Notes: generated from the letters alone by a model not told the origin. Counted from the stretch's first letter, positions 1 to 30,366 are shown. The stretch is 64,000 nucleotides of DNA from an uncultured Alphaproteobacteria bacterium (GCA_944391335.1 CALXTF010000006.1:3296-67295), one strand, 5' to 3'. Translations and numbers: made by a program.

Positions 1-72
1 AAAAAAGAGAGCTGTTTACTTTAGATAAATATTTTATATTAACATTCAAAGAAACATTTTGGAGTGTTGTGA

Positions 73-6053: not shown

Positions 6054-7160
6054 TTACTCTAAATTACGTTTAAAAGTTCTTGCCGCAAGAGCAAGAGAAA
6101 ATAAAGCAATAGCGGTAAGTATTAATAGATCGATATAAATATCGTTTAATTGCATATTTTTTAAGAACACGCCGTTACCAATATTAATGAAGAAACGTAA
6201 GGGATTAGCATAAGTTAAGTATTGTAAAAGGATAGGCATATCAGCGACCGGAGAAACAAAACCGGATAATAAGACTGCCGGCATAATAAAAGCAAAAGCT
6301 CCTAAAATGGCTTGTTGTTGGTTACGGCAAACAGAAGAAATAAACAGTCCTATTCCGACTAAGGAGAGCATAGCGATAAAAGATGAAAAGAAAAATAACC
6401 CAATAGATCCCACAAATGGAATATCAAAACAAAAAACAGCAACCCATGTCATAACCACTTGCAATACAAGGGCAATAATCAATGGGGGAATAATTTTACC
6501 AATAAGGATTTCAAAAGCAGTATAAGGACTAACGATTAATTGTTCAAAAGTTCCTATTTCTCTTTCTCTAGCCACAGATAATGATGTTAGCATTAACGAG
6601 ATAACAAGTACTAAAATAACAATTAAAGAAATAACTAAATACCATTGATATGTGGCATTAGGATTAAACCAGTTTCTAACGTTGATATTAATTGAAGCAT
6701 TAGGGATTGAAAATTTTTGATTATAAGTATTTGCAATCTGATTAATATAATCGACAATACCGGCAGCGACACTTGGTGTTCGTCCATCGACAAAAAGTTC
6801 TATTTGTGAGATTTGTTCTTTTTTTAACTGTACAGCGAAATGATTATGAATTGTTAAAACAGCTTGTATTTTTTCTTCTTTAAGATTTTGCAAAGCTTGA
6901 TTTCTGTTTTGTGATAAAGATACATTGTTGAACCATGATGAAGCGGCAATTTTATTAATAAATTCGCGTGATTCGAGAGTTTTTGAATAATCGATAATTG
7001 TAATATTGATATTTTTAGTCTCCATGGTGAGAATATTAGCGAAAAGAGCCAATTGAATAAGAGGCGGCGCAAGAATAATGATTCGACTTTTAGGATCGTG
7101 AAGAATGGTAAGAAATTCTTTTTTGATAAGGACCCATAAATGAAAAAAGTAATTAATCAT
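6054..7160 (-). CDS. ABC-2 type transporter permease (YbhR-like)
   Basis: Six-TM ABC-2 permease. I place the start at MINYFFH (ATG 7160), preceded by AGGAGG. The ATGATTAA overlap couples it to the upstream permease stop. The track ORF extends to 7211. Confidence 0.8.
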   Translation of the reverse strand: MINYFFHLWVLIKKEFLTILHDPKSRIIILAPPLIQLALFANILTMETKNINITIIDYSKTLESREFINKIAASSWFNNVSLSQNRNQALQNLKEEKIQAVLTIHNHFAVQLKKEQISQIELFVDGRTPSVAAGIVDYINQIANTYNQKFSIPNASININVRNWFNPNATYQWYLVISLIVILVLVISLMLTSLSVAREREIGTFEQLIVSPYTAFEILIGKIIPPLIIALVLQVVMTWVAVFCFDIPFVGSIGLFFFSSFIAMLSLVGIGLFISSVCRNQQQAILGAFAFIMPAVLLSGFVSPVADMPILLQYLTYANPLRFFINIGNGVFLKNMQLNDIYIDLLILTAIALFSLALAARTFKRNLE

Positions 7161-8259
7161 CAAGCCTCCTAGCAGTTTTTTTATAAACGATAATTGAAAA
7201 TAAAAATCCAAGAATAAATAACAATATCCCGCTTAGAATAGTTGTTTGCGTTATAGAACCCACCATAAATTCATTTTTAATAAAACTAACATAATGAGTA
7301 GGGGGGAGTAGTTGAGTCAACCATCGAAAGAATGTTGGCATAGAAAGTATGGGAAAAACGACGCCGGACATCATTAGCGCCGGCAAGAAGCCAATAATTA
7401 AAGCCGCCATACTTGCCAACATTTGATCATGAAGACAATTTGATATAATTAACCCTATTCCCAAAGAGGCGTAGAAGAATAATGAGCTAATAATAAACAG
7501 CACGAAGAAACTACCATGAAAAGGAATATGAAAGATGAAAATGATAACCGCTAACGAAAATGAAAGAGAAAGCATCCCCACAATAAAATAGGGAATATAT
7601 TTACCAATGACGAATTGAATAGGTTGAATATTAGCGGCCAGAAGGGCTTCCATGGTTCCTCTTTCCCATTCGCGAGAAACCACCAGAGCAGTAAGTAATA
7701 TACCAATCAGAGTCATGGTTACGGCAAGCGAGCTGGGGACAACGGCTCGGCGTCCGTCATTATTTTGATTAAAGAGATATCGAGGTCTTATTTCAACTGC
7801 AGCCTGTTGAAAATCGTGTAAATAAGTTTGATTTAGCCATTCTGAGGTAATTTGTTGAATATAGTTTTGAGCGTAACTGATTTGATTATAATTTGCACCA
7901 TCAATAATGAGTTGTAAAGAAACTTCTTTACCTGCGGAAAGTTGTCGTGAAAAGTCAATAGGAATAGTTAAAGCCGCTTGAATTTTTCCTTGTGTTAAAT
8001 CGTTGAACATTAATTGTCGATTATTGTAAAGGAGCATATTTATATAATTATTTTGTTTAAATTTATCAATTAATTCATTAGATTGTTTTTCATTGTCATT
8101 ATTATTAATTCCTAAACGGATGTGTGTAAAATCGAGATTAATCCCATAAGTATAAATAAAAAGCAGAACAGTCGGCAAAATAAAAGCAATTAATAAACTT
8201 GACGGATCGCGAATGATTTGTAAAAATTCTTTTTTAATAAAAGCTAGAGTTATTTTCAT
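7153..8259 (-). CDS. ABC-2 type transporter permease (YbhS-like)
   Basis: 368-aa paralogue of the downstream permease, with the same architecture (N-terminal TM, large loop, 5 C-terminal TMs). Abuts the ATPase gene stop. Confidence 0.8.
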   Translation of the reverse strand: MKITLAFIKKEFLQIIRDPSSLLIAFILPTVLLFIYTYGINLDFTHIRLGINNNDNEKQSNELIDKFKQNNYINMLLYNNRQLMFNDLTQGKIQAALTIPIDFSRQLSAGKEVSLQLIIDGANYNQISYAQNYIQQITSEWLNQTYLHDFQQAAVEIRPRYLFNQNNDGRRAVVPSSLAVTMTLIGILLTALVVSREWERGTMEALLAANIQPIQFVIGKYIPYFIVGMLSLSFSLAVIIFIFHIPFHGSFFVLFIISSLFFYASLGIGLIISNCLHDQMLASMAALIIGFLPALMMSGVVFPILSMPTFFRWLTQLLPPTHYVSFIKNEFMVGSITQTTILSGILLFILGFLFSIIVYKKTARRLDD

Positions 8260-9762
8260 TTAATCTCTCCTTTTTTGGTCGAGAATAATTTTAATAAAAG
8301 CATCTTCTAGAGTTTGACATTTTGTAGATTTTTTAAGTTCTTGAGGTTTACCGGCAGCAATAGTTTTACCTTGGTAAAACAAACTGATATCATCACAAAA
8401 TTCTGCTTCGTCCATAAAATGAGTTGTAATCAAAACGCTAACCCCTTTTTTGGCAAGAGAAGTAATATGATGCCAAAATTCACGACGCGTAATAACATCG
8501 ACCCCTGACGTTGGTTCATCAAGAAATAAAACGGAAGGATTGTGCATTATGGCACAAGCAAGAGACAGTCTTTGTTTAAATCCGAGAGGTAAATCATTAG
8601 CATTATCATTAAGAAAAGGTTTAAAAGCGAAAATATCAATTATATTTTTAATGGCATCATCGGCTTTATTTTTAGATAGTCCATATGCGCCGGCAAAAAA
8701 ATTCAAATTTTGTTGAACACTTAAATTTGGATAAAGAGAAAATTTTTGTGCCATATAACCGATATTGGCTCGTGCGGCAGAAGGATTTTTGATAATATCA
8801 ATACCCATAATGCGAGCAGTTCCAGAGGTAGGTTTGATTAATCCGCACATCATTTTAAAAGAAGTTGATTTACCTGCGCCATTTGGTCCAAGAAGTCCGA
8901 AAATTTTTCCGGCTTTAATTTTAAAGCTGTTATTTTTAACGGCATAAAATTCTCCGTATTTTTTGGATAAATTATCGGCTTCAACGACATATTCATGATG
9001 ATGAGGTTTAGCAATAAAATTTTTGGCGACTTCGGACGCTTGGAGAGAAAATCCCCCCATTAAAGCGATAATTTTTTCTTCGAATTTTTTTGTATCTGGA
9101 GCCAAATCATAAGGTTTTCCTTGATAAATAATTTTACCTTTATCAATAACAATTACCCGGTCAAATCCATGAGCTTCATCCATATAAGCGGTTGCCCAAA
9201 TAACGGTTGCGTTATTATGAATGGTTTTTTTGACCATTTTCAGTAATTCACGACGTGAAACGGGATCGACACCAACGGAAGGTTCATCTAAAAGTAATAA
9301 ATCAGGATTACCCATTAAAGCGCAAATAAGACCGAGTTTTTGTTTCATACCGCCGGAGAGGTTTCCGACCAGTCGATTTTGAAAAAGGGTTAAGCCGGCA
9401 AAATCAAGTAGGTTATTAAAATTTTTATCAATATTTTTAAGTTTTGCGTAAAAATCAAGATTTTCTTTTATGGTCAAATCTTCATATAAAGCGAATTTCT
9501 GGGGCATGTAACTTATTTTATTAATAAAAAATTTTTTATCATTCCATGGATTTAAACCGTTAATAGATATATATCCTTCATCAGGAAGCAATAATCCGTT
9601 AATCAAACGAAGAAGCGTTGTTTTACCGGCACCATCAGCTCCAATTAATCCAATAGTTTGTCCTTTTTCAATTTTAAGAGATAAGTGATTAATAGCCGTT
9701 ATTTTTCCACTTTTAAAAGTTTTGTGCAGATTTTGAATATCAATTATATATTGTTTGTCCAT
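8260..9762 (-). CDS. ABC transporter ATP-binding protein with two fused NBDs (YbhF-like)
   Basis: Two Walker A sites (GADGAGKTT, GPNGAGKST), the LSGGMKQK signature, and Walker B LLLLDEP / VLFLDEP. ATG at 9762 (MDKQYII) has GGAG 7 nt upstream. The track's TTG at 9780 is less likely. Confidence 0.85.
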   Translation of the reverse strand: MDKQYIIDIQNLHKTFKSGKITAINHLSLKIEKGQTIGLIGADGAGKTTLLRLINGLLLPDEGYISINGLNPWNDKKFFINKISYMPQKFALYEDLTIKENLDFYAKLKNIDKNFNNLLDFAGLTLFQNRLVGNLSGGMKQKLGLICALMGNPDLLLLDEPSVGVDPVSRRELLKMVKKTIHNNATVIWATAYMDEAHGFDRVIVIDKGKIIYQGKPYDLAPDTKKFEEKIIALMGGFSLQASEVAKNFIAKPHHHEYVVEADNLSKKYGEFYAVKNNSFKIKAGKIFGLLGPNGAGKSTSFKMMCGLIKPTSGTARIMGIDIIKNPSAARANIGYMAQKFSLYPNLSVQQNLNFFAGAYGLSKNKADDAIKNIIDIFAFKPFLNDNANDLPLGFKQRLSLACAIMHNPSVLFLDEPTSGVDVITRREFWHHITSLAKKGVSVLITTHFMDEAEFCDDISLFYQGKTIAAGKPQELKKSTKCQTLEDAFIKIILDQKRRD

Positions 9763-10615
9763 CTTGTGTCTCCAAGTCAATAAGATGGAGAATGACAGTA
9801 ACCGGCATTCCTTGTTTTAAAAAACGATTAGCGTCATCTGCGTAAACATTTAGTCGATAGACCAGATTTGCTCGTAATTCTTCAGTTTGCACATTTTTAG
9901 GTGTAAATTCAGCAATAGGGGAAATATAACCGACATATCCGGAATAATTTTTTTTACGACCGGTTTTAGGATCAATCGTATCAGTTATAATTGTTGCTCT
10001 TGTCCCATAGTCAATTAAAGCTAATTTTGTTTCCGGTAAATAAACACGAGCGTATTTAGGGCTGTCTTTGGCAAGAGTATAGATAATTTGCCCAATAGCA
10101 AGAGTTGATCCCGGTTCTTGAACACGATTTGTAATAATTCCATTATCGGGAGCATAAATTTTAGTATATTCCAATTGTTTTTTTTGGTATTGAGCGGCGA
10201 TTTTAGCAGCTTCGACAGCAGCTTCGGCTTCATTTTTCGCATTAGTATAAGAAATACAACTACGTTCGGAGGCGATTTTTTGTTTACATAAAGGCAAGTT
10301 GGTGTTCAATAGGGATTGAGCTTCTGCGAGTTGAGCTTTAGCTCTTTTGAGTTCGGCATTAGCTTTATCATAATTATATTGATAGTCTTGATCATCAAGT
10401 ATAGCCAGTAAATCCCCTTTATTGACATGATCTCCTTCTTCAAACAACATTTCCTTTAATGTTCCGGATACCTTAAAACTGATATCAATTTGTCGAATAT
10501 CGATATTGCCGTAAAGAATAATTTGATTAGTCTGATTTTTTTCAGACTTTAAGAAAAAAATGATAATGCCGATGATAAGAAGAGACATTAAAATATTGAT
10601 TATATATTTTCTCAT
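9740..10615 (-). CDS. HlyD-family membrane fusion (periplasmic adaptor) protein (YbhG-like)
   Basis: 291 aa with an N-terminal TM, a lipoyl-like GDHVNKGDLLAILD, a coiled-coil hairpin and a beta-barrel C-terminus. The 4-nt ATGA overlap links it to the TetR gene. Confidence 0.8.
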   Translation of the reverse strand: MRKYIINILMSLLIIGIIIFFLKSEKNQTNQIILYGNIDIRQIDISFKVSGTLKEMLFEEGDHVNKGDLLAILDDQDYQYNYDKANAELKRAKAQLAEAQSLLNTNLPLCKQKIASERSCISYTNAKNEAEAAVEAAKIAAQYQKKQLEYTKIYAPDNGIITNRVQEPGSTLAIGQIIYTLAKDSPKYARVYLPETKLALIDYGTRATIITDTIDPKTGRKKNYSGYVGYISPIAEFTPKNVQTEELRANLVYRLNVYADDANRFLKQGMPVTVILHLIDLETQDGQTIYN

Positions 10616-12363: not shown

Positions 12364-13368
12364 TTATCTTCCGAAAACAGCATCTTTTAAGCGTTTAAGC
12401 GTGGCTTTGGCGACAGGACGAGCTTTAGCTGCACCATTTTCAAGCATTTCTTCGACTTCATTAAAATGTGCGATATAGTAATTGTATTTTTCGCGCATGT
12501 CTTTAATTTCGTTAAGAACGGCATCAAGCAGCATATTTTTAATATGACCATAACCAAGTTTTCCTTGACGCAATCCATCTCCCATTTCTTGCAGTTGTTC
12601 GGAAGTTGCAATTGATTTATAGATTTCATAAACCAAAATTTCATCAGGATTTTTAGGTTCTTCCATTGGTCGAGAGTCGGTTTTAATTGAGAAAATAGCT
12701 TTTTTAATAGCTTTGTCATCTTCAAACAAAGGGATGACATTTCCATAAGATTTGCTCATTTTTCGACCATCAATTCCGGGAACAACAGCGACGTGTTCAT
12801 CAATAGAGTATTCTGGTAAAACCAATAATTCCTTATTGTAATGTGCATTAATGGCACCGGCGATATCGCGTGCGATTTCAACGTGCTGCACTTGATCTTT
12901 ACCGACAGGAACAATATCTGTATCATAAGCTAAGATATCCGCCGCCATTAAAGTCGGATAAGTGTAGAGTCCCATATTGATACCATCATCATCGGGTTTT
13001 CCTGCGGCTCGATTCTTATCAACCGCGGCTTTATAGGCATGAGCTTTATTCATAAAACCTTTAGGAGTATAAGCATATAGAATAGTTGTAATTTCCGGAA
13101 TTTCGGGAATATCGGATTGGCGATAAAAAACGGATTTATTCGGATCTAAGCCGGCAGCCAAATAAATGCAAGCGATTTCTTTAAGCTTTTGATTTAAAAT
13201 GACAGGGTCTTTTTCGGCGTTAATGGCATGGTAATCGGCAATAAACATATAATGTTCTTTAGCCTTTTTTCCCATTTTGATAGCGGGTTTAATCACTGCA
13301 AGATAATTTCCCAAATGTGGAGTGCCAGTCGGTTTAAGGCCGGTTAAGACTTTTTTGTCAGTAAACAT
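12364..13368 (-). CDS. trpS: Tryptophan--tRNA ligase
   Basis: 334 aa. HIGH-type TGTPHLGNY, KMSKS (GRKMSKSYGN), GKDQVQHVE. Confidence 0.9.
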   Translation of the reverse strand: MFTDKKVLTGLKPTGTPHLGNYLAVIKPAIKMGKKAKEHYMFIADYHAINAEKDPVILNQKLKEIACIYLAAGLDPNKSVFYRQSDIPEIPEITTILYAYTPKGFMNKAHAYKAAVDKNRAAGKPDDDGINMGLYTYPTLMAADILAYDTDIVPVGKDQVQHVEIARDIAGAINAHYNKELLVLPEYSIDEHVAVVPGIDGRKMSKSYGNVIPLFEDDKAIKKAIFSIKTDSRPMEEPKNPDEILVYEIYKSIATSEQLQEMGDGLRQGKLGYGHIKNMLLDAVLNEIKDMREKYNYYIAHFNEVEEMLENGAAKARPVAKATLKRLKDAVFGR

Positions 13369-13474: not shown

Positions 13475-14752
13475 ATGCTGGATATAAAATTTATTATCGA
13501 GAACCAACAATTGGTGGAAGAAGGAATTGCAAAAAAAGGTTTACAAGTAGATATCAAAGGTTTGATTGCTTTACATAAAGATATCAATAAATTGAAAACG
13601 ACCTCACAGGCTTTGGCTGAAGAAAAAAATCGATTGAGTAACTCGATAAAATCCGCTTCTGCAGAGGAACGTCCGAATATTATTGCTAAAAGTAAGGCTT
13701 TAGGTGAAGAGTTAAAAGTTGAACAAGAAAAATTATCACTTGAACAAGCAAAATTTGATGAAATTATGTGGCGTATGCCCAACCTTCCCAGTCCTGAAAG
13801 TCCGATTGGAAAAGATGACAGCGAAAATGTTGTCAGAAGAAAGGTGGGTGAACCAACAAAATTTGACTTTACACCGCGAGATCATGTGGAATTAATGGAA
13901 TTAAACGGTTGGAGCGAAATGGAACGTATCACGAGAGTTTGCGGTTCAAGGACTTATGCTATAACCAATGAATTGGCTCGTTTGGAGTTGGCGATTCATT
14001 TGATGGTTATGGATAAACTAGCCGAAAATGGTTTTAGAATTATCAACGTTCCTTCCATTTCTAAAGAAAAACCATTATATGGACAAGGTTATTTGCCATT
14101 TTCCCGTGATGAAATTTACTATATGCCTGAAGATGATATTTATTTGTCAGGAACAGCGGAACTTATTCTAAATTCTTTACGCGCTGATGAAATCATTCCC
14201 GAAAACGAGTTGCCCATTTTATACGCCGGTTTTTCCCCTTGTTTTCGTCGTGAAGCAGGTGCCGCAGGAAAAGATACCAGAGGTTTAACTCGTGTTCACC
14301 AGTTTATGAAAACGGAACAATTTGTGATTTGTAAAAATGATATTAACGAGAGTGAAAAATGGCATAAAAAATTGTTGCAAATTTCTGAAGAAGTTTTGCA
14401 AGATTTGGAATTACCTTATCAAGTTTTGGAAGTATGCACAGGAGATATGGGGGCTCCCAAATACCGTCAGTATGACTTGGAAGCTTGGGTTCCGACACAA
14501 AATTGCTATCGCGAAACCCATAGTTGCTCGAACATTACCGAATGGCAGGCGCGTCGCACCAATTTACGTTATCGAGACAATTCGGATGGTAAAGTTAAAT
14601 TTGTTCATACTCTAAATAATACAGGTATTGCAACGCCACGCGCTTTGGTTCCTTTCTTAGAAAATCACCAACAAGCAGATGGTTCGATTCGTATCCCCGA
14701 AAAATTGCAACCCTATATGATGGGTAAAAAGTATATTGGTGGAAAGAAATAA
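13475..14752 (+). CDS. serS: Serine--tRNA ligase
   Basis: 425 aa. N-terminal coiled-coil arm. Class II motifs FRREAGAAGKDTRGLTRVHQF and TLNNTGIATPR. Confidence 0.9.
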   Translation: MLDIKFIIENQQLVEEGIAKKGLQVDIKGLIALHKDINKLKTTSQALAEEKNRLSNSIKSASAEERPNIIAKSKALGEELKVEQEKLSLEQAKFDEIMWRMPNLPSPESPIGKDDSENVVRRKVGEPTKFDFTPRDHVELMELNGWSEMERITRVCGSRTYAITNELARLELAIHLMVMDKLAENGFRIINVPSISKEKPLYGQGYLPFSRDEIYYMPEDDIYLSGTAELILNSLRADEIIPENELPILYAGFSPCFRREAGAAGKDTRGLTRVHQFMKTEQFVICKNDINESEKWHKKLLQISEEVLQDLELPYQVLEVCTGDMGAPKYRQYDLEAWVPTQNCYRETHSCSNITEWQARRTNLRYRDNSDGKVKFVHTLNNTGIATPRALVPFLENHQQADGSIRIPEKLQPYMMGKKYIGGKK

Positions 14753-14819: not shown

Positions 14820-17800
14820 ATGGCAATGGCTGAAAAAGTTTTGTTAGGAGATGCTCTTAGAACCATTGTTTTAAAGGGTTCACAAGAAACCGCGGCGGAC
14901 TATGAACGTCAATTGCGTGAGGCGGATGATGAACGCAAAAAAACTCAGGCCGAATTTAAGGAAAAAAGTGCCGGCAAAATAAAAGAGCTGAAACAACAAA
15001 TAAAAGAACTAAGTACTGAGATTAAAAACGCACCCTCCGAGAGAAAAAAAGAAATCGGTGAGCAAATCAAAATCCTCAATGGTAAAATTGAACAATACAA
15101 AACGCCTCCCGTCAATCGTTTTGCTTACCTTGACAGTAGTATCAAAGCCTATGCCGGCGCCCAATTATTGTTTAAGCCGATGTTGGGTGAAGAAGTTTTA
15201 AAAAGCAATAATATTGAATTCGGTGTAAACGAGCAAGGGCGGATAGAAGTTGATGCCGAACAATTAAGTAATAGTGTTTTAGGTGACAAAATCAGAGAAG
15301 CTGCCGATTATATTTTCGGTCGCACCCGTGAGTTGAATGAAAAAATAACGCAGGCATCGGATATTAACAATATTATTCGTTCCGATGCCAAAAATTTGTT
15401 GGGCCTTGATAATGTCGAAAAAATTGATTTTGATTTAATTGAACGTTGTCACAAGGCTTATGAAGCAGAAAAAGCCGAAAGAGAACGCAGAAAAAAACAA
15501 ATTGAACAACGTAAGCAAGAAAGTTTGACCGGAATTAAAGTTATTAAGGAATATCCTGACGGCTATTCGATAGTTGAGATGCTGCCAAGTCCTGTGTATG
15601 ATGAAAACGGTAAATTACAGTACCATACTTCGCTTAAATTTGAATCGGACGAAATGGGGCATTGTGTCGGCCGCGGCGGCTACAATCAACATATCGGCAA
15701 AGAAGGGTGGCACTTTTATTCTCTGCGCGGTGCGGACGAAAACGGGGTAATGGTTCCGCACTGTACTATTTCGATAGAAAACGGCAAATTGGCACAAATC
15801 AAAGGTAATTCAAACGGAGCAGTAAAAAATCGGTATATTCCCGATGTCAGGGATTTTGTAAAATCTCTTGATATGCCGATACCGGAATCTGAAAAATCGA
15901 GAATAGGCTATGTTAATGATTCAAACAATAAAGAAGTGGATTTGTTTGCTCTGAAAGAGAATACCCGATTGGATGAGCTGAGTTTGTCTGCCGGCGACTA
16001 TAAAGGGATAAATCTTGCCAATATTTCTTATGTGAAAACATTGAATTTTGAAGGCGGGGTAACCAGAAAAGATTTTGAGGAAATTGCTAAAATCGGCTTA
16101 ATAGAAAATCTGACGCTGTCAAATGAAAATGAGGCTCAATGCTATACGCAAACTCTTCCCAATGTAGAAAGGTTGGTTGTAAAAGGAAATTTTGACTTAC
16201 CCAATATCGGCAAAGCTCGATATATAAAATATACAGGCATAAAGGAATATGATTTTAATCATGATTATAGACGACTGAAGCAGCTGGAATTGGAAGAGGA
16301 CGTACCTCTTAATATTGAAAAAGCTCCGATACTCGAAGAGGGAATCCGTGGGGGAATATGGGGAGACGCCTCTAAACTTTCTACCAAAGAGTTACTTTCC
16401 AAAATGTTTGGCAGTAAGTGGGTGGAAAAATATGTTTTTGAGCAAGAAGGGCGTTTAATCGTTAATACAGATTTGGATTTTAAAAGACGGGGATTATCTC
16501 ATTTTCCGTATGATTTCGGCGATATAAAAATTAATGGAACACTCAATTTACGCGAAAATCAATTGATGGATATTCCTAATCCTATTAAATATCCTGAATG
16601 TCGAAAGATGATAATAAACAATTCCTATCAGAACGAAAATATTAATCGTTTTGATGAGTTGCCTTATTTGCCCGAGGGAATTGATTGCGAAAGTGATTTT
16701 GATTTGGAATTATATAAGGTTTCGTTCAAGGATATTTTAAAAAAAATAAATATAGGGGATAGAAGTAAATTTACGGAAAAAGGAGAAAAAATTTATTACC
16801 AAGGCGATTTGAATTTATCAAACGTTAATGTTTTGAATCAAAGATATTATTTCGATCTCGATATGAGCGAATTAAATGTCGACGGTTCGGTTAAGGTTCT
16901 GCATAACGCAAAATATTTACCCAATGCGAAAAAAATAGAAATCTTTAAAATAGACGGCAATATAACGTTGCCCGATGTAACGGAGCAGGTTGTTGTGTAT
17001 TGTGAAAGACCTTGTAATATCCAAGGAAAAAATCTAAAAACAGTAACATATAGTGATTATGTTCGCCTTAGTGTAAAAGAAGCCGGTAAAATGAATATGC
17101 AGCCGGAATATTATGGAAATTTTATTTTTATACCGACCGGTGATACAGAAAAAAAACAGAATTTGTCAGCCTTAAAAATAAGTGGCACTATAGGAATTTT
17201 TATTGATACGGTTTTTGATGAAATATCCTGTTTACCGCAATGCAAAAAACTTCGGGTTGATTGTCCGTTGACAGAAACGATGTTATCAAAAATAAATTCC
17301 AAAACGGAAACCATCTGTTGCCAAAATTTGTTTGATGTGGATATGTTACCGCCAAACAGCCAATTAAAATATGTTGATTTGAATTATCTACGAGCGGGCG
17401 ATGAAAAAAGTATCGACAAATTTATCCGCAAACTCTCGGAAAGAGGGATAATGATTAAATATTTAGATAATAATGTTGATTATTCCCAAGATTTGTCGGA
17501 TATTTTAGTTAAAAATTTTGAAATGCAATGGGATAGAGATATTAAAAATATTTCTAAATTTCCTAAAGCTGAAAAATTACACATTTTAAGTCCTGACGAT
17601 CATTTTGAAAAAGATTTTTTAAAAGACGCAACGCCGTATTTAAAAGAGTTGGAACTTGGTTACATGAATGAAAAGACGGATTTTTTAGCTTTGCCACCGG
17701 ATGTAAAACTTGAAAGAGTACATATATATGACAGTGCTGTTTCTTCCAATATTTTGAATGAGTTACCGCAATCGATTAAAAATATTGAATTTTTGAGATG

Positions 17801-18581
17801 CCGTAATAGTATTGATTTTGAACCGCTCAACAGACTGCCGAATTTGGAAAAACTTGAAATAAACCAAATGAATGTTCCGGCCAATGCTTTTGATAAAGTC
17901 GATCCGGAGCGCTTGAAGCAAATAAATATAAGCGGTGATACGCGAACGGTTATGCGCGTACAAGAAATTATAGCGATACACCAATTGCCGCCGACAGAAG
18001 AAAATAATAAGATTAAAAAACTTCATCAATGGTTGACGGACGACAAAAACAATATTGATTATAAAACCAAACAAATCGTTTTTTATTTGACGGCCGCAGA
18101 TGTGATGAAAGGTAAACACCCGCAACCGATAACGACGGAAGAGCTGTCGGCTCGGGTAAAAGGTATCGAAAAGTTTAAATTGGACAGCTGTGCTAAAATT
18201 ATAATGGCTAACGAACTCAATCATAAAACAGGCAATAACAAAATCGGCAGAACGGTTTTGGACGATTATAAGGGTAAAAAAGCCGGATATTATACTCATA
18301 TGTTACGCTATTATGACCAAGACAAAGATTTTGGTAAAGTTGGTGAAATCATGAAAGCGGCTGTTACTCGCAACATAAAACATCACCCAGATTTTTGGAG
18401 AGCGGAAAATATAGTCGAAGACAGAATGGATGCCCACCAACGGTCACTTCAGTCTGATTTTAACCGATTGCTGAATGACAGAGTAGAAAGTCTTACGAAG
18501 TATCATGAACAATCAAAAAACAAGACAAATACATACAGCTTTAATCAAGCCGTGCAAAAAATGTGCAAATGTAAAAGCTGA
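14820..18581 (+). CDS. Large multidomain protein: N-terminal coiled coil, PcfJ-like Cys/His motif region, long leucine-rich-repeat-like array
   Basis: 1253-aa uninterrupted ORF. Lys/Glu-rich heptad-like N-terminus. ESDEMGHCVGRGGY...WHFYSLRG...PHCTISIE.GKLAQIKGNSNG resembles the PcfJ-like family signature (from memory, unverified). From about aa 380 there are repeated L-P-x-x-x-x-L modules (LPNVERLVV, LPNAKKIEI, LPQCKKLRV, LNLRENQLMDIP, LPNLEKLEI). Confidence 0.7.
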   Translation: MAMAEKVLLGDALRTIVLKGSQETAADYERQLREADDERKKTQAEFKEKSAGKIKELKQQIKELSTEIKNAPSERKKEIGEQIKILNGKIEQYKTPPVNRFAYLDSSIKAYAGAQLLFKPMLGEEVLKSNNIEFGVNEQGRIEVDAEQLSNSVLGDKIREAADYIFGRTRELNEKITQASDINNIIRSDAKNLLGLDNVEKIDFDLIERCHKAYEAEKAERERRKKQIEQRKQESLTGIKVIKEYPDGYSIVEMLPSPVYDENGKLQYHTSLKFESDEMGHCVGRGGYNQHIGKEGWHFYSLRGADENGVMVPHCTISIENGKLAQIKGNSNGAVKNRYIPDVRDFVKSLDMPIPESEKSRIGYVNDSNNKEVDLFALKENTRLDELSLSAGDYKGINLANISYVKTLNFEGGVTRKDFEEIAKIGLIENLTLSNENEAQCYTQTLPNVERLVVKGNFDLPNIGKARYIKYTGIKEYDFNHDYRRLKQLELEEDVPLNIEKAPILEEGIRGGIWGDASKLSTKELLSKMFGSKWVEKYVFEQEGRLIVNTDLDFKRRGLSHFPYDFGDIKINGTLNLRENQLMDIPNPIKYPECRKMIINNSYQNENINRFDELPYLPEGIDCESDFDLELYKVSFKDILKKINIGDRSKFTEKGEKIYYQGDLNLSNVNVLNQRYYFDLDMSELNVDGSVKVLHNAKYLPNAKKIEIFKIDGNITLPDVTEQVVVYCERPCNIQGKNLKTVTYSDYVRLSVKEAGKMNMQPEYYGNFIFIPTGDTEKKQNLSALKISGTIGIFIDTVFDEISCLPQCKKLRVDCPLTETMLSKINSKTETICCQNLFDVDMLPPNSQLKYVDLNYLRAGDEKSIDKFIRKLSERGIMIKYLDNNVDYSQDLSDILVKNFEMQWDRDIKNISKFPKAEKLHILSPDDHFEKDFLKDATPYLKELELGYMNEKTDFLALPPDVKLERVHIYDSAVSSNILNELPQSIKNIEFLRCRNSIDFEPLNRLPNLEKLEINQMNVPANAFDKVDPERLKQINISGDTRTVMRVQEIIAIHQLPPTEENNKIKKLHQWLTDDKNNIDYKTKQIVFYLTAADVMKGKHPQPITTEELSARVKGIEKFKLDSCAKIIMANELNHKTGNNKIGRTVLDDYKGKKAGYYTHMLRYYDQDKDFGKVGEIMKAAVTRNIKHHPDFWRAENIVEDRMDAHQRSLQSDFNRLLNDRVESLTKYHEQSKNKTNTYSFNQAVQKMCKCKS

Positions 18582-18630: not shown

Positions 18631-19059
18631 TTAAAGCGGCGTTGTATCTTCCGCAGCCCAAAAAGCGATAGGATTTTCTTTGCTCATTCCATAAAAAGAG
18701 TAAGTAAAATTACCGATTGCAATCCATAGGAGAAGCATGGCAAAAGAAAGAGCATAGGCGACAATATATTTTTTAAAGTTTTTATTTGCCGCAAACATCA
18801 ATGGTAAAGTGCGATAAAAAATATATCCACCGATAACCAGCGAAACAACATTCTCGAAGGTATAAAGATAGATATTGTCTTTACACTCAGTTTGTCCGGG
18901 GATGACAATGGTTATAAAATCTTTAATTAATAAATAGAAATATAGTCCCCATGCCCACAAGAAAAAAATTTGCAGGATGAGGATAAAAGAGGAAACAACA
19001 GGCCTTTGTTTAAAGTCTTGCAAGTAGTGGTTAAGGTAAGTAAAATTTTTATTATTCAT
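18631..19059 (-). CDS. Small three/four-TM membrane protein (candidate partner/immunity protein of the upstream toxin-like gene)
   Basis: 142-aa ORF with hydrophobic segments VVSSFILILQIFFLWAWGLYFYLLI, VVSLVIGGYIFY and IVAYALSFAMLLLWIAIG. AAGGA RBS about 9 nt upstream. No family recognised. Confidence 0.6.
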   Translation of the reverse strand: MNNKNFTYLNHYLQDFKQRPVVSSFILILQIFFLWAWGLYFYLLIKDFITIVIPGQTECKDNIYLYTFENVVSLVIGGYIFYRTLPLMFAANKNFKKYIVAYALSFAMLLLWIAIGNFTYSFYGMSKENPIAFWAAEDTTPL

Positions 19060-19096
19060 GTCAGTTATCCTTAAAAAAAATCGGAAACAGGTGTGT

Positions 19097-19303
19097 TTAA
19101 TATCTCAGAAACGACAGGTCTGGGTTCTTTTGCCCAAAAGGTATAGGCAATTTCTTTATATGTTCCGAACAAAATACTGCGAGGAGTTGTTCGTATAAAA
19201 AAAACGGCAAATAAATTCGATAAAAGAAAGAGCATAAGCCGTCGCGTATTTTTTTTAATCCGTGTCTATTATCTTGAGAAGAAGTTTCAATTTTGTTTTT
19301 CAT
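19097..19303 (-). pseudogene. Frameshifted 3' fragment paralogous to the 18631..19059 membrane-protein gene
   Basis: DNA similarity to the last ~55 codons of the neighbour. gcccaaaaggtataggcaatttcttt matches gcccaaaaagcgataggattttcttt, and aaaagaaagagcataagcc matches aaaagaaagagcataggcg. Spacing is 90 vs 86 nt. Translation gives KKYATAYALSF (vs KKYIVAYALSF) in one frame and LPIPFGQKNPD (vs NPIAFWAAED) in another. Confidence 0.6.
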
Positions 19304-19614
19304 AAAAGCCTCATATTTTATGGAGAAAACACATTCTTATTTATGTTTTAAATATAAATAAGAAAAAATCTAATATAAAGACTACAACATAAAAGAGAGG
19401 GTGTCAACTAAAAATTATTATTTTATCTACTTTGCAACCTTAAATTGAAATTTAATTGCTAAATTAAAGTATTCTAAATATATGACATAAATTTGATAAA
19501 GAATCAATATGCAAAAAAAATATATATATAATATTTTAGAGAGACACATAATAATAGGAATAAAAATATATTACATACTGTTAAAATTTTAGTTTAAAAA
19601 CAGGAAACAATAGT

Positions 19615-20286
19615 TTAGAAATTTTCGCTGTTATATTTAACTTTAACCTTGATTGGTTGTTTACCGTTTTTAATATAAGATGTAAATTTATCCATATTAG
19701 GACCTAAATCTATACATCCTGCGGAGCCGAGTTCGTCACCGCCGTGAATATACATATGATTACGTCCGAAAGTTTCTGTATTTTCTGCGGGTTCAAGAGG
19801 AACACGATAATTTCCCCAAGATCTTTGCTTATCCATCCAACCGTATTTCCCTTTAGCCGTTGCAAGAGCAGCCCGTTCCTCTAAAGATAAATTAGGCTCG
19901 GAAACCGCTTTTTTCATTCTATTGAGGAAAGACTGACGTTCTTCTAATTTATTGGGATCAATATAGTATGTTCCCTCGGGAGTCGGTCCTTTATTGGCAA
20001 TTGAAGTGCTTGCTTTATTTTGATAGCCTTCTTGTCCGGACATAGACGGCCATTGAGCTTGTTTAATATTATTTCTTTTGACATATAGATTATTTCCATC
20101 AAATTCGACTTCTGGTTCGGGCATTGGCGTCATCAATTCCATATCATCATTATAGTTTGAAAGGCGATGTTCCAAGATTTCCCTTGTTGTCATATTTTTT
20201 TTGGGCAATGGACTCATATTTAATTGTAATCCGGACATTCCGAGTAGTGAAGTTGCCAGATCGTCATTTTTTTTATTTTTTTTCAT
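19615..20286 (-). CDS. DUF2778 / Tlde1-like (L,D-transpeptidase-fold) putative peptidoglycan-targeting toxin
   Basis: 223 aa. SGQEGYQNKASTSIANKGPTPEGTYYI and HMYIHGGDELGSAGCIDLG match the DUF2778/Tlde1 pattern (GPIPxGxYxI ... IHGG...GSxGCI, with catalytic His/Cys). No signal peptide is visible. Confidence 0.7.
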   Translation of the reverse strand: MKKNKKNDDLATSLLGMSGLQLNMSPLPKKNMTTREILEHRLSNYNDDMELMTPMPEPEVEFDGNNLYVKRNNIKQAQWPSMSGQEGYQNKASTSIANKGPTPEGTYYIDPNKLEERQSFLNRMKKAVSEPNLSLEERAALATAKGKYGWMDKQRSWGNYRVPLEPAENTETFGRNHMYIHGGDELGSAGCIDLGPNMDKFTSYIKNGKQPIKVKVKYNSENF

Positions 20287-20301: not shown

Positions 20302-20327
20302 AAAAAAAGCCGGATAAGTTATCCGGC
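20302..20327 (-). terminator. Intrinsic terminator 1 of 3, immediately 5' of the toxin-like gene RBS
   Basis: gccgga-taagtta-tccggc hairpin. The A7 run on the + strand is a U7 run after the hairpin on the - strand. It ends 2 nt before the AAGGAAAAG RBS. Confidence 0.6.
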
Positions 20328-20333
20328 AAGATT

Positions 20334-20361
20334 AAAAAAAAGCACGAAAGTTAATTCGTGC
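20334..20361 (-). terminator. Intrinsic terminator 2 of 3
   Basis: gcacgaa-agttaa-ttcgtgc hairpin followed on the - strand by U8. Confidence 0.6.
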
Positions 20362-20375
20362 CGACTTAAAATATT

Positions 20376-20402
20376 AAAAAAAAAGAGGTGAAAATCCACC
20401 TC
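20376..20402 (-). terminator. Intrinsic terminator 3 of 3
   Basis: gaggtg-aaaatc-cacctc hairpin followed on the - strand by U9. Confidence 0.55.
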
Positions 20403-20616
20403 GCACAATATAGATATAAAAATCCACATTATAGAAAAAAGCATAGCACATTTTATCACAAAATACAATATTTTTCTTTACGGGTTGTGGATAACTTTTA
20501 AAGACAACTATTTATTTTATTAAGCAATAACGTAAAATATAAATAAAAATTCTGTTTCACTTGCTATTTTAGGAGAATATGTATATCTTAAAAAAAATAT
20601 ATAAAGGTGGAAAAAT

Positions 20617-21285
20617 ATGAATAAACTTGATATTAGCCAATTAAAAACAGTAATTTTTGATTGGGATGGAACGTTGGCTGAAACACGCACGCCGAGATTA
20701 TGGGCAATTAACCAAATTATGGCAAAATATGGGTTGCCGGATTGGCAAAATACAAAACAGCAACAAAATCCCATGCTTTCCTTTATGGATAATTTCCCTC
20801 TTGTTTTTGGTGAAAAAGCAAATCAAGCTTATAATGAATATTTCCATTTATATAAAGATAATATTGCTCAAATGATAAAACCTTTCCCCGGGGTTAAAGA
20901 ACTCCTTTCTTTTTTTTATAAACAAGGCGTTTTAATATCAATTATGACAAATAAAGATAGACGACTATTGGATTATGAATTACCTTTACTTTTTTCACCT
21001 TCAATCTTTACGCGTATTGTATGCGGACATGAAGCTCAACATGATAAACCAAATGCCGATCATGCGTTGGCCGTACTTGATGGTTTAATCGAAAGAAAAG
21101 ATATTTCCGACAGGACGGTCTGGGTTGTTGGAGATAGTCAATTAGATACGATGACGGCACAAGCAATCAAAGCTTTACCTATAAGAATAAGTCAAAGACA
21201 TGAGGAGGAAATAAATTCTGAAGTTGTCTGTTTTGATGATTTCCAACAATTTTATCAGGCGGTTGTTGAAGAAAATAGGAGATAA
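20617..21285 (+). CDS. HAD-superfamily hydrolase (phosphoglycolate-phosphatase-like)
   Basis: 222 aa. Motif I VIFDWDGTLAET, motif II SIMTNK, motif IV VGDSQLD. Confidence 0.75.
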   Translation: MNKLDISQLKTVIFDWDGTLAETRTPRLWAINQIMAKYGLPDWQNTKQQQNPMLSFMDNFPLVFGEKANQAYNEYFHLYKDNIAQMIKPFPGVKELLSFFYKQGVLISIMTNKDRRLLDYELPLLFSPSIFTRIVCGHEAQHDKPNADHALAVLDGLIERKDISDRTVWVVGDSQLDTMTAQAIKALPIRISQRHEEEINSEVVCFDDFQQFYQAVVEENRR

Positions 21286-21291
21286 ATTTTT

Positions 21292-22845
21292 ATGAAACAA
21301 AATAATGATGATAAAAAATCCGGTTATCTGCAAAAAGGATTTCTCATTGCGGTAATTGTTGCTTTAATACTCTTTAATTATTTTTATTTTCATAATAAAA
21401 TATCTGCTAATAATGAATTAATTATACATTATAGTGTAAAGGATGATCCTATGGAACAATATCGAGATCCGGCAGTGGCAGGATTTTTTTATGCTTTAGA
21501 TCCACAAACTCTCAAAAGTGAAATTCACTCATATTTGCAAACGGAGTGGCGGCCTTTTAGAGGATTACCCAAAATTTTAATTGTTCCTCATGCCGGTTAC
21601 CAATATAGTGGATCGGCCGCCGCTAAAGCTTATCGTCCTTTAGAAGATTTTGCAGAAAAGATTGAAACAGTTATTTTGCTCGGCCCCTCGCATCAGATGG
21701 CAATAAATGAAGCGGCTCTTTCTTCTGCGGATTATTTTAATACACCATTAGGAAAAATTCCGCTTGATAAAAAGAAGGTTGAACAATTAGCTCTAAAATC
21801 AGGATTTAGTATAAATAATGCGGCTCACAAAAAAGAACATTCCTTGGAAGTGCAATTACCTTTTTTACAAACGGTGATTAAAAATTTTAAAATTGTGCCA
21901 ATCGTATATGGTGTTGATACAAACCCACAAGAAATAGCGCAGGCTCTTAAACCGATGTTAGAGGACGCCCAAACAATATTGGTCGTTTCCGCCGATTTAT
22001 CGCATTATTATTCTTATGAAACGGCTCAAAAAATAGATAAAAAAACAGCTCAAAAAATTATTAATGGAAAAGCAAATATTAATCATCATGAGTCATGTGG
22101 AGCCAATGGTATCAATACGGCGTTAATTCTGGCTCAGATGATGTATTTGCATCCACAAACTTTATCTTTGATTAATTCCGGCGATACCTCCGGCGAAAAA
22201 GAAAAAGTTGTTGGTTATGGCGCGTGGGCTTTTGAAAAGACAAGTAATAAATTAGATGAAGAACAAAAATCACTAGCGGATTATGTCGCCGCATATAAAG
22301 AAAAACTTTTAAAAATCGCACGTTTATCCATAGAAAAAGCTGTTATGCAAGGACAAACTTATGTACCTAATCGTGATGACTATGATGATGCTTTATTTGA
22401 TAGAGGAGCATCTTTTGTAACACTAGAAAAAAATAAAAATTTAAGAGGTTGTATCGGTTCTGTTTTACCTCGCCGCGCAATAGCCCTTGATATTGCGGAA
22501 AATGCATATGCGGCGGCTCTTGAAGATACGCGCTTTCAACCAGTTTCTGAAAATGAATTGAAGCAAATAAAAATTACCATATCCTTATTAACAGGACTTG
22601 AAGAGATAAAATATCAAGATGAAGAAGATTTATTATCACAAATAAAACCATATAAAGATGGTTTGGTTATTCTTGACGGTCATCGTCAGGGATTGTTTTT
22701 ACCATCAGTCTGGGAACAACTCCCTGATAAAAAAGAATTTTTAAATAATTTAAAATTAAAAGTGGGAATGAGTCCGAGTTATTGGTCTAATGCAATTAAG
22801 GTTTATCGATTTACAACAGTGGAGATAAAAGAAAATGAAAATTAA
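21292..22845 (+). CDS. Fused AmmeMemoRadiSam system protein B (Memo-like) + protein A (AMMECR1) with N-terminal TM anchor
   Basis: Memo motifs VPHAGYQYSG, LGPSH, EHSLEVQLPFL and SADLSHY. C-terminal AMMECR1 motif NLRGCIGSV. TM segment GFLIAVIVALILFNYFYF. Confidence 0.8.
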   Translation: MKQNNDDKKSGYLQKGFLIAVIVALILFNYFYFHNKISANNELIIHYSVKDDPMEQYRDPAVAGFFYALDPQTLKSEIHSYLQTEWRPFRGLPKILIVPHAGYQYSGSAAAKAYRPLEDFAEKIETVILLGPSHQMAINEAALSSADYFNTPLGKIPLDKKKVEQLALKSGFSINNAAHKKEHSLEVQLPFLQTVIKNFKIVPIVYGVDTNPQEIAQALKPMLEDAQTILVVSADLSHYYSYETAQKIDKKTAQKIINGKANINHHESCGANGINTALILAQMMYLHPQTLSLINSGDTSGEKEKVVGYGAWAFEKTSNKLDEEQKSLADYVAAYKEKLLKIARLSIEKAVMQGQTYVPNRDDYDDALFDRGASFVTLEKNKNLRGCIGSVLPRRAIALDIAENAYAAALEDTRFQPVSENELKQIKITISLLTGLEEIKYQDEEDLLSQIKPYKDGLVILDGHRQGLFLPSVWEQLPDKKEFLNNLKLKVGMSPSYWSNAIKVYRFTTVEIKENEN

Positions 22846-29586: not shown

Positions 29587-30366
29587 TTATCTAAAGAATA
29601 ATTCTTTTGTTATTCTCTTTGATTCTTCCATATAGTGTTGAGATTCGTTAGGGATACCGAGATAGGAAAGTGAAAAATCGGTAATTAGAAAACCAAAAGG
29701 GTTTTTGAGTGCGTCATTATGGTTTCTATTAGGAAAACGAACGAAGCGTAAGCGCATAATTGCCCGCCATATATTAATATCAGGAGTCGGCGAATTCGGC
29801 ATATAATCGAGAGTTCTAAATTGAGTTTGCCATAACCCCTTACTGAGAGGACGAATCCAGTCGATTTCAACATCTCGCATCATATTTTTGTTTCGGAATT
29901 GCAGCATATTAAATTTAGCGTCATTACGAACAAAATCATCGAAGATCGGAGCCATTGAATACCAATAGACAGCGGAACCTTTTCCCCAACGTCTGATAAG
30001 TTCATCATAATCATTTGAAATTAAATAACGCAACATAATATAATTAGTAATATTTTCTTCAATGATAAGGTTGTTGAGAGGATAACTAATTTCCATAGGT
30101 TGAGCGCGTTCAATTTGACTAAAATAATGATCAATATAAAACAATTGAGGAGCGCTTGATCTTTGAGGAAGCATAATATAAAGAGCGCAAGCCAACATTA
30201 TATTAAAACAAATAGACATAGAAGCTAAAATGACCAAGAATCGCGATGTCCACAAATATCTGCGTTCAGGCATTGCATCGACGTGAACACGTTCAGGGAA
30301 AAGCCCAAGTTGATCTGGACTTTGTTTTTCTTTATATTTAAAAATGGTGTTAAAAATACTAAACAT
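29587..30366 (-). CDS. VirB8-family (type IV secretion VirB8/TrbF-like) protein, orphan
   Basis: 259 aa. Cytoplasmic N-terminus, a single TM (FLVILASMSICFNIMLACALYIML), then a periplasmic domain with ITNYIMLRYLISNDYD (compare VirB8 YV..RE.Y). The C-terminal NPFGFLITDF matches the VirB8 hallmark NPLGFxVxxY. Confidence 0.6.
   Translation of the reverse strand: MFSIFNTIFKYKEKQSPDQLGLFPERVHVDAMPERRYLWTSRFLVILASMSICFNIMLACALYIMLPQRSSAPQLFYIDHYFSQIERAQPMEISYPLNNLIIEENITNYIMLRYLISNDYDELIRRWGKGSAVYWYSMAPIFDDFVRNDAKFNMLQFRNKNMMRDVEIDWIRPLSKGLWQTQFRTLDYMPNSPTPDINIWRAIMRLRFVRFPNRNHNDALKNPFGFLITDFSLSYLGIPNESQHYMEESKRITKELFFR

Follow-up and report, generated by a model that had tools for sequence, protein, structure and literature searches.

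What is a gene for a Tlde1-type cell wall toxin doing in the middle of a run of housekeeping genes, with no delivery machinery beside it and a small membrane protein gene downstream? This question is raised by a 64,000-nucleotide stretch of DNA from an uncultured Alphaproteobacteria bacterium (GCA_944391335.1 CALXTF010000006.1:3296-67295; here called the window, ~33% G+C), in which a preliminary description, made from the sequence, had singled out genes for a 223-amino-acid (aa) Tlde1/DUF2778-like protein and a 142-aa membrane protein, with a decayed copy of the latter gene between them. That description had the position, size, and shared (minus) strand of both open reading frames (ORFs) right, and the motifs that it quoted (GPTPEGTYYI, HMYIHGGDELGSAGCID, and KKYATAYALSF versus KKYIVAYALSF) were all found in the translations; the spacer between the two genes is AT-rich and 555 bp long. 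We consider it likely that this locus is the most reduced version of a chromosomal polymorphic Tlde1 toxin-immunity island in a low-GC clade of gut Alphaproteobacteria, a reading that draws on direct analysis of family membership, fold, catalytic residues, synteny, gene arrays, pseudogene origin, and a conserved leader. The 223-aa and 142-aa proteins are called the toxin and the partner below.

The toxin scored above the cut-offs of two Pfam families, Tlde1_dom (PF10908; 39.3 bits versus a gathering cut-off of 30.1) and YkuD (30.3 bits versus 23.4), and had no match in PADLOC or NCBIfam. When a profile of the toxin clade was compared with the PDB sequence set, only Salmonella Tlde1a was matched (7UMA, 7UO3, and 7UO8; E = 2e-6), in an alignment that spans toxin residues 61 to 218 and essentially the entire crystallized protein. 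This alignment places R115, H121, S128, G130, and C131 of Tlde1a, whose roles in catalysis and D-amino-acid exchange have been described (PMC9638812), on toxin residues R174, H180, S187, G189, and C190. The hydrophobic residue I191 is also kept, and H180, S187, G189, C190, and I191 are invariant in 15 homologues. An AlphaFold2 (AF2) model of the toxin, built from 15 sequences (mean predicted local distance difference test score [pLDDT], 82; predicted template-modeling score, 0.71), is confident over the domain, with residues 1 to 22 disordered and residues 33 to 41 helical. The top three Foldseek matches of this model in the PDB were the Tlde1a structures (E = 1.3e-8 to 4.8e-8; target-normalized template-modeling scores of 0.58 to 0.60), followed by Bacillus subtilis YkuD, the mycobacterial LdtMt enzymes, and many L,D-transpeptidases. 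Since profile, motif, and fold all agree, membership of the toxin in the Tlde1/DUF2778 family can be taken as established from sequence and model. This bears out the preliminary description, which had proposed a DUF2778/Tlde1 toxin with candidate catalytic His and Cys residues, now aligned with Tlde1a as H180 and C190, and had named a DUF2778 profile search and a comparison with the YkuD fold among the ways to check it.

We also found that the position of Tlde1a H129 is occupied by Ala188 in the whole clade, giving an SAGC instead of an SHGC motif (GSAGC in 14 of 15 aligned homologues and GSNGC in P0013). A Tlde1a variant at H129 loses much of its cross-linking activity and part of its carboxypeptidase activity (PMC9638812). 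We read Ala188 as a deviation within the Tlde1 family that does not exclude the toxin from it. The most variable part of the alignment, at residues ~110 to 150, is modeled as three short helices and matches the place of the capping-subdomain insert of Tlde1a. Homologues of the toxin are few, with 17 in a collection of 5.8 billion sequences.

Every close homologue of the toxin with a readable genomic context sits at one fixed chromosomal site, with genes for a HAD hydrolase, a Memo-AMMECR1 protein, and dnaE on one side and serS and a class I tRNA-synthetase gene on the other. The same flanks were present in all 10 related places compared (L001, L004, L006 to L009, L086 to L088, and L090), and the flanking proteins are 92 to 95% (SerS) and 86 to 88% (DnaE) identical. 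The content of the island varies, with zero, one, or two toxin genes, a truncated toxin fragment, and between one and nine partner paralogues. The hosts on record are uncultured gut Alphaproteobacteria or "uncultured Azospirillum sp.," represented by metagenome-assembled genomes (MAGs) from human and animal guts.

The islands are compared here in gene order; each partner paralogue is written as P followed by its length in aa, and each toxin gene encoding n aa as Tlde1(n). The window island reads Tlde1(223), relic, P142. That of L001 (MAG GCA_944390315.1, whose SerS is 95% identical to the window's) reads P173, P146, P160, P143, that is, four intact paralogues (173, 146/125, 160, and 143 aa) and no toxin gene. 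In L006 and L086 the order is P157, Tlde1, and then five (L006) or four (L086) paralogues; in L004 and L010 it is P119, a Tlde1 fragment (87 aa), P172, P154, Tlde1(232), and then six paralogues; and in L009 it is P154, Tlde1'(212), P181, P154, Tlde1(234), and then five paralogues. The 87-aa fragment (L004 4286-4549; also in L005 and L010) is the C-terminal part of a second Tlde1 type, and L009 7837-8475 encodes the intact 212-aa version at the same position, with its own leader and N-terminal domain. This pair suggests that toxin modules are reshuffled or lost when the repeated leader and N-terminal segments recombine with each other. The window island is the smallest among the relatives compared, and a p2-type partner gene upstream of the toxin gene, which is present in every other locus, is missing from it.

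The toxins of these islands have a near-identical leader and a common N-terminal domain, joined to at least three types of C-terminal enzyme domain that are 40 to 64% identical to each other. Several features that mark polymorphic toxins, namely, a conserved N terminus, alternative C termini, variable immunity genes, and orphan or truncated modules, are found here. Because of the shared leader and N terminus, the diverse enzyme domains, and the diverged partner arrays, it appears well supported that the island is a polymorphic toxin-immunity hotspot in which immunity genes are stockpiled or persist as orphans. The preliminary description had likened the locus to polymorphic toxin-immunity loci with degenerate partner copies, and profile, fold, and comparative genomics now support that view well.

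The relic between the two genes had been described as a frameshifted copy of the 3' third of the 142-aa gene, with blocks of about 70% identity to it. The relic is real, with an in-frame stop codon and a frameshift, and the paired peptides KKYATAYALSF and KKYIVAYALSF are present, but its assigned parent was not borne out. Against the adjacent 142-aa gene, we found a single 18-nt block at 94% identity, and its 3' third as a whole was 62% identical to the relic (z = 3.7 versus shuffles); with permissive gap penalties the score fell inside the shuffle range, and the partner-family hidden Markov model (HMM) had no match to the relic in three frames. Instead, the larger part of the relic is 81% identical over 179 nt to L001:5791-5968, the 3' third of the 160-aa tandem paralogue (blastn E = 2e-43; z = 73), and tblastn aligned it to that gene in different frames, at 69% over 42 aa (E = 4e-20) and 54% over 28 aa. 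Window positions 19267 to 18500 are colinear with L001 5791-6576 (76% over 787 nt), and positions 19267 to 19331 match the beginning of the 125/146-aa partner gene (L001 5065-5129) with 89% identity over 65 nt. With its two parts matching separate L001 paralogues and the region colinear with L001, the relic is the scar of a ~660-bp deletion, which left one paralogue with only its first ~12 codons and fused these to the 3' third of the following paralogue; the stop codon and the frameshift came later. The relic as a decayed duplicate of the 142-aa gene was thus rejected in favor of a remnant orthologous to the diverged 160-aa paralogue that is intact in L001, preceded by the stub of a third paralogue.

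The partner itself had no match in Pfam, NCBIfam, PADLOC, or PHROG. In its AF2 model (pLDDT, 71), three long helices come after a short one at the N terminus, and a fold search returned no meaningful PDB match for this model. In a positive-inside analysis of 31 unique paralogues, the N terminus carried 3.7 Lys plus Arg in 21 residues and the loop between helices 2 and 3 carried 2.5 in 9 residues, and the helix 1-2 loop and the C-terminal tail were net acidic. The partner is predicted from this to be an inner-membrane protein with three transmembrane (TM) segments and a cytoplasmic N terminus, in agreement with the earlier description of a multi-TM protein encoded downstream on the same strand. 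Because the positive-inside rule puts the N terminus in the cytoplasm, the most conserved residues outside the TM segments (G55 and Y64 in loop 1 and W134 in the tail) are predicted to face the periplasm, the compartment where Tlde1 acts.

The partner-family HMM identified 54 ORFs, all of them inside this syntenic island (L001 to L010 and the window), in arrays that lie on the toxin's strand, and the paralogues are 16 to 67% identical to one another. The 5.8-billion-sequence collection contained three homologues, only six proteins came from a word-indexed search based on the alignment of the partner family, and a protein 99% identical to the partner is on record from another sample. By these comparisons the partner represents a new sequence family. 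In L088, positions 8700-9641 encode a 313-aa ORF that matches the HMM at about twice the usual length and may be a fusion of two paralogues. Since the family is restricted to the island, divergent, arrayed on the toxin's strand, also present as orphan arrays (L001), and conserved at residues predicted to be periplasmic, the 142-aa protein is most likely an immunity protein for the toxin, and we treat it as the candidate. It lacks the DUF2195 domain and Sec signal peptide that mark Tldi1a/Tai5, being predicted to have three TM segments. With Tai7/Tldi1c, as judged by description only, it has in common that it is a small TM protein adjoining a DUF2778 gene.

We also surveyed a distant set of ~75 loci with Tlde1 domains of <40% identity, mostly from other gut Alphaproteobacteria ("Candidatus Enterousia" and "Candidatus Scatocola"). 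When the neighboring genes were clustered, the only recurrent neighbors were three-TM proteins of 105 to 125 aa, belonging to several sequence-unrelated families and starting -51 to about +100 nt from the toxin stop codon on the same strand. At least four unrelated three-TM families (clusters 1/29, 2, 3, and 7) follow Tlde1 genes in L013 to L080, often overlapping the stop codon and sometimes in tandem. A small ORF with at least two TM segments lay directly downstream (start within -60 to +300 nt) of 59 of 71 distant Tlde1 genes versus 22 of 517 control genes in the same loci (odds ratio, 111; Fisher P = 3e-50), a statistic computed over phylogenetically non-independent loci with a naive ORF caller. 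Profile-profile comparison detected no relation between the partner family and the distant three-TM families, among which only clusters 1 and 29 were related to each other, and PHROG gave no match for four members of the partner family or for four of the three-TM proteins encoded behind distant Tlde1 genes. In the Tae7/Tlde1c subfamily, immunity proteins (Tai7) with TM domains have been reported (bioRxiv 10.1101/2020.02.18.954545). Given these proteins and the 59 distant loci, the pairing of Tlde1 with a membrane protein is of an already known kind, and what is new is the sequence family of the partner. The co-occurrence survey that the preliminary description had proposed thus found small multi-TM ORFs, of unrelated families, behind most distant Tlde1 genes, and this weakens its suggestion that a membrane partner would be a different pairing.

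How such a toxin would leave the cell is a separate question. As described earlier, it has no signal peptide, in that no hydrophobic core was seen in its N terminus. A Pfam scan of 44 larger ORFs found no type VI secretion system (T6SS), PAAR, VgrG, Hcp, or Rhs gene in the 64-kb window, so that for this window the earlier statement that no delivery route is visible holds, and no T6SS-type domain was recurrent in the neighborhoods of the related loci. A search of the literature on secretion systems in RF32-type gut Alphaproteobacteria found nothing. The first 55 residues of the toxin form a domain that is conserved across toxins with strongly diverged C-terminal domains (~40 to 48% identity). 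A profile of this domain had 14 matches among 1.84 billion representative proteins, and the 8 of these that were inspected or aligned were all Tlde1-type proteins of the clade or their fragments. Toxin residues 1 to 60 had no Pfam match and contained no recognized trafficking domain (PAAR, Rhs, MIX, LXG, MuF, TPS, etc.). We consider the N-terminal domain a candidate trafficking or loading module.

In other lineages, the Tlde1 domain follows a range of modules. In P0017, the nearest relative found outside the clade, it stands behind a motif read by eye from the sequence as an Rhs core end, and elsewhere it stands behind RHS repeats (L069 6629-8284), a MuF minor-head domain (L021 9299-10429; weaker in L022), PG_binding_1 (L022 9395-10408), or a Dit-like tail domain (L067 9101-10462). 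Distant Tlde1-like domains are also carried by 13 viral contigs. Because it is found behind Rhs, MuF, PG-binding, and Dit-like modules and on viral contigs, the domain is clearly a cassette that serves more than one delivery system. DUF2778 has also been reported on Rhs proteins and near genes of type I, II, IV, and V secretion systems (bioRxiv 10.1101/2020.02.18.954545). Fusions of the Tlde1 domain occur in other gut Alphaproteobacteria and in unrelated phyla, and L073 and L082, the loci of P0017 and its neighbors, contain arrays of Rhs-tip-like ORFs with one common N-terminal segment.

Upstream of the toxin gene lie three stacked hairpins with T-runs that resemble intrinsic terminators, the last of which ends 21 nt before the ATG. 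The region contains 6 terminator-like sites versus 1.2 expected, the triple cluster is unique in the window, and the z scores for folding of the leader versus shuffles are -7.6 in the window and -7.0 in L004. Two to four stacked hairpins precede the toxin gene in all eight other loci examined (L004, L006, L007, L008, L009, L086, L088, and L090), in L009 before both toxin genes. Their position is conserved across species, their sequences differ, and terminator 1 shows compensatory changes. An alignment of nine leaders also revealed a conserved upstream block with a 13-mer box, AAGTTATCCACAA, which includes the DnaA-box consensus TTATCCACA, and, between this box and the terminator hairpins, a promoter-like element (TTGxxx-N16/17-(C/A)TATxx). 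In a survey of 103 fetched loci, L089 being left out, the box was present once before the toxin gene in 10 (L004 to L010, L086, L087, and L090), except that L009, with two toxin genes, has it twice; it was found nowhere else in those loci and was absent from toxin-less L001, and L088 has it with one mismatch. The leader had no Rfam match above threshold, and a reading of terminator 1 as an RfaH ops-like element (GGCGGTGA in L004) was dropped because that sequence is not conserved across loci. Either DnaA or a dedicated regulator could use this box as an operator. On the simplest reading, transcription would have to pass the terminator cascade, and toxin output would be low or conditional, through read-through or antitermination.

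From these observations we infer toxicity, immunity function, topology, delivery, and regulation along the following lines. The toxin would act in the periplasm of a neighboring Gram-negative cell through Cys190 and His180 and, by analogy with Salmonella Tlde1a, would trim or exchange D-Ala4 of peptidoglycan tetrapeptide stems and so block cell wall growth. Its N-terminal domain would most likely load it on a delivery machine encoded elsewhere in the genome. The periplasm-facing loop and C-terminal tail of the partner would bind the toxin as it arrives at the periplasmic side of the inner membrane and so block it, and the arrays of relatives, with up to nine paralogues and even where the toxin is absent, would be stockpiled immunity against the toxin variants of neighbors. 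In the window genome, deletion destroyed the two paralogues adjoining the toxin gene and left the relic. Transcription of the toxin gene would start in the promoter-like block behind the AAGTTATCCACAA box and run through three terminators, with the immunity genes expressed separately. A bolder composite, in which the 55-aa domain is a loading signal for delivery by other means than a T6SS (some new or unforeseen carrier, for example, a phage- or gene transfer agent-like particle, a type IV secretion system [T4SS], or vesicles), the AAGTTATCCACAA operator works with an antitermination gate of three to four terminators, and three-TM proteins neutralize the toxin at the membrane surface, is one that we regard as doubtful.

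Several points weigh against the toxin-immunity reading. The toxin gene and the first downstream partner gene are never translationally coupled, with gaps of ~190 to 350 bp in the clade, and the window's gap is the 555-bp spacer. The window's intact partner belongs to sub-group p3, which is otherwise found only in toxin-less L001, and it may be non-cognate for the window toxin. The delivery route is missing from the window, given that it lacks the T6SS, PAAR, VgrG, Hcp, and Rhs genes listed above and that the N-terminal domain matches no known trafficking domain. Since loss of H129 impairs the activities of Tlde1a and the position is Ala188 here, the chemistry of the toxin may differ from that of Tlde1a. 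With three terminators to be crossed from the promoter-like block to the ATG, the gene could in effect be silent. The non-independence of the distant loci and the simple ORF calling behind the 59 of 71 count belong in this list as well, and toxicity, a periplasmic site of action, and protection are all steps that we infer.

Some of these points would fit a decaying, silent remnant of a once active toxin-immunity locus, with its partners mostly deleted and a toxin that has ceased to be expressed or delivered. Of the islands compared, that of the window is the smallest, with a deletion scar, no upstream p2 partner, no delivery genes nearby, and three terminator-like hairpins before the ATG. However, the toxin ORF runs to its full length and keeps every invariant and catalytic residue, and the partner is intact too, with its 99% identical counterpart in another sample. 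The terminator stack is no sign of decay, because it is conserved in species where the islands are large and intact. We therefore think a silent remnant unlikely.

The locus could also be a phage-derived lysis module, in which the Tlde1-like enzyme is of the endolysin type and the three-TM proteins are holin- or antiholin-like and give it access to the wall, for example releasing particles or other toxins by lysis of a subpopulation. The enzyme lacks a signal peptide, the partners are holin-sized three-TM proteins, and a terminator-gated leader would suit a lethal lysis gene; Tlde1-like domains on the 13 viral contigs and the MuF and Dit-like fusions in related gut Alphaproteobacteria point the same way. 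This is nonetheless improbable. Without a PHROG match, neither the partner family nor the downstream three-TM clusters match a holin family, and arrays of up to nine diverged paralogues, or arrays with no enzyme as in L001, are not how holins behave. The predicted N-in/C-out topology and the non-charged, Trp-containing periplasmic tail are unlike those of class I holins. Phage structural, integrase, and lysis-regulation genes were absent in and beside the island, which has housekeeping flanks in every genome examined. The MuF-toxin fusions, moreover, were reportedly described by Jamet and colleagues in 2017 as themselves a class of polymorphic toxins of temperate phages.

A different objection concerns the membrane proteins, which could guard against some other, membrane-acting toxin or serve toxin export or maturation, with the true Tlde1 immunity being of some other nature or unnecessary. 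Polytopic immunity proteins are the classic partners of membrane-damaging toxins, such as the pore-forming colicins. The sub-group of the window partner occurs elsewhere only in a toxin-less genome, p2-type partners also lie upstream of the toxin promoter region in every relative, and translational coupling is lacking. Set against this, the island contains no other candidate immunity ORF, and the partner family occurs nowhere outside Tlde1 islands. At least three unrelated multi-TM families hold the same downstream position in distant loci, often overlapping the toxin stop codon, and TM-containing immunity proteins have been described for a Tlde1 subfamily. We find it hard to credit that the partners are not immunity proteins for the Tlde1 toxin.

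Still more remote is the idea that the toxin is a housekeeping enzyme, a cytoplasmic L,D-carboxypeptidase that recycles or remodels the cell's own peptidoglycan, and that the membrane proteins are unrelated neighbors. L,D-carboxypeptidase chemistry does serve cytoplasmic muropeptide recycling, an export signal is lacking, and genes for AnmK, a PBP5-type carboxypeptidase, and a lytic transglycosylase are likewise present in the window. Yet the gene is absent from the close relative L001, duplicated (as 40%-identical variants) or truncated in others, and located in the sole hypervariable spot of an otherwise conserved region. In other lineages, shuffling has placed the domain behind Rhs, MuF, and Dit modules, and its association with a downstream small membrane ORF is far above background. 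A defense-system reading was likewise rejected.

The island aside, the window is a housekeeping run with dnaE, serS, valS, lysS, lexA, and genes for glycogen metabolism and cell wall enzymes. Four ORFs of at least 120 aa that the Pfam scan omitted were identified by orthology (the class I synthetase gene and serS) or through the Pfam annotation of orthologues (the HAD hydrolase and Memo-AMMECR1 genes). The Memo-AMMECR1 gene encodes one protein of 514 to 520 aa with a hydrophobic N-terminal segment, and both domains are found in its orthologues (for example, L001 2060-3604). Converging with the partner gene, inside the variable spot, is a gene for a 1,253-aa protein with an N-terminal coiled coil and only weak leucine-rich-repeat-like matches; L001/L002 share it with the window (74% identical), and it is absent from the island in L004, L006, L009, and L086. 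The secretion-related items of the window are an ABC/HlyD-type transporter set, a TolC-like gene, and a VirB8-like gene (Pfam VirB8, 55 bits). The last is isolated, with no other T4SS genes found nearby; its neighbors are a 296-aa protein assigned to no family and one of 635 aa that carries a He_PIG Ig-like domain. The VirB8-like gene hints that T4SS components may be scattered in the genome. Coordinates are collected in Table 1.

Table 1. Positions of the island genes, leader elements, and neighboring genes (window numbering unless a locus or protein is named)
Feature	Position	Strand	Remarks
Tlde1-type toxin gene	19615-20286	minus	223-aa ORF
Clade-specific N-terminal domain	20122-20286	minus	toxin residues 1-55; core NMTTREILExxLxxYxDDME
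L,D-transpeptidase-like Tlde1 domain	toxin residues ~61-223		R174, H180, S187, G189, C190
Partner (candidate immunity) gene	18631-19059	minus	142-aa ORF
Stub of partner-family paralogue	19268-19331	minus	upstream region and first ~12 codons (MKNKIETSSQDN)
Pseudogene remnant, 3' third of partner-family paralogue	19089-19267	minus	in-frame stop and frameshift
Three stacked intrinsic-terminator-like hairpins with T-runs	20309-20403	minus	20402-20385, 20362-20341, 20327-20309
Conserved upstream block	20404-20500	minus	AAGTTATCCACAA box, promoter-like element, first leader hairpin (9-leader alignment)
AAGTTATCCACAA box	20485-20497	minus	13-mer
Leader hairpins in relatives	L004 5743-5966; L006 9872-9971		
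Class I aminoacyl-tRNA synthetase gene	12364-13368		by orthology
serS	13475-14752		by orthology
1,253-aa protein gene	14820-18581	plus	
HAD hydrolase gene	20617-21285		Pfam annotation of orthologues
Memo + AMMECR1 gene	21292-22845	plus	Pfam annotation of orthologues
ABC/HlyD-type transporter set	6054-10615		
VirB8-like gene	29587-30366	minus	
TolC-like OEP gene	35311-36672		

Work on Tlde1 toxins has dealt with them as weapons that Salmonella and other Proteobacteria deliver by a T6SS. What the window and its relatives add is a lineage, a partner sequence family, an N-terminal domain that could point to a delivery route and raises the delivery question, and a terminator-stacked leader with an operator-like box. 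Orphan immunity arrays and the decay of an island can also be observed here in nature, and the genes of the island would supply constructs for studying membrane-embedded immunity to a cell wall toxin.

Among known systems, the toxin resembles Salmonella Typhimurium Tlde1a, the effector of the Tlde1a/Tldi1a (Tae5/Tai5) pair (PDB 7UMA; PMC9638812; bioRxiv 10.1101/2020.02.18.954545), in its PF10908 domain and fold. The active-site Arg, His, Ser, Gly, and Cys residues are kept with a His-to-Cys spacing of 10 residues, and each toxin is small, consists of a single domain, lacks a signal peptide, and is encoded next to a small partner gene. The two differ in that sequence identity is ~20%, the SHGC His129 is replaced by Ala, the window toxin has the extra conserved 55-aa N-terminal domain, and there is no T6SS cluster at or near its gene. 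The partners differ as well, that of Tlde1a being a Sec-exported periplasmic DUF2195 protein encoded upstream, whereas that of the window is a predicted three-TM protein encoded downstream and arrayed in relatives. Tae7/Tlde1c (bioRxiv 10.1101/2020.02.18.954545) is comparable in having a TM-containing partner and a domain that also serves as an Rhs C-terminal cassette (compare P0017, by eye), a likeness drawn from the description of that subfamily and not from sequence. Tae7 has been described from T6SS-bearing Enterobacterales, Burkholderiaceae, and Pseudomonas, whereas the window clade consists of gut Alphaproteobacteria with their own N-terminal domain and no T6SS context.

The MuF-type polymorphic toxins are comparable in that, in related gut Alphaproteobacteria, the Tlde1 domain stands behind MuF and is followed by a small three-TM ORF, although the toxin of the window lacks MuF and phage genes are absent from its island. 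Arrays of orphan immunity genes and toxin tips that have been displaced are familiar from the orphan modules of Rhs and contact-dependent inhibition (CDI) systems and from the acquired interbacterial defense clusters of gut Bacteroidales. Unlike these systems, the island encodes neither a large filament or shell protein, such as Rhs or CdiA, nor a recombinase, and mobile-element genes are lacking too; its toxin is small, and its repeated unit includes a structured, terminator-rich leader. Like those modules and the Bacteroidales clusters, it combines swappable C termini, toxin fragments, tandem immunity genes, and toxin-less arrays at a fixed hotspot, in a gut habitat. The Tlde1 domain here would thus be the variable warhead of a compact, fixed-site island in common and almost unstudied gut Alphaproteobacteria, which leaves current ideas about these toxins standing and extends the known range of Tlde1 systems.

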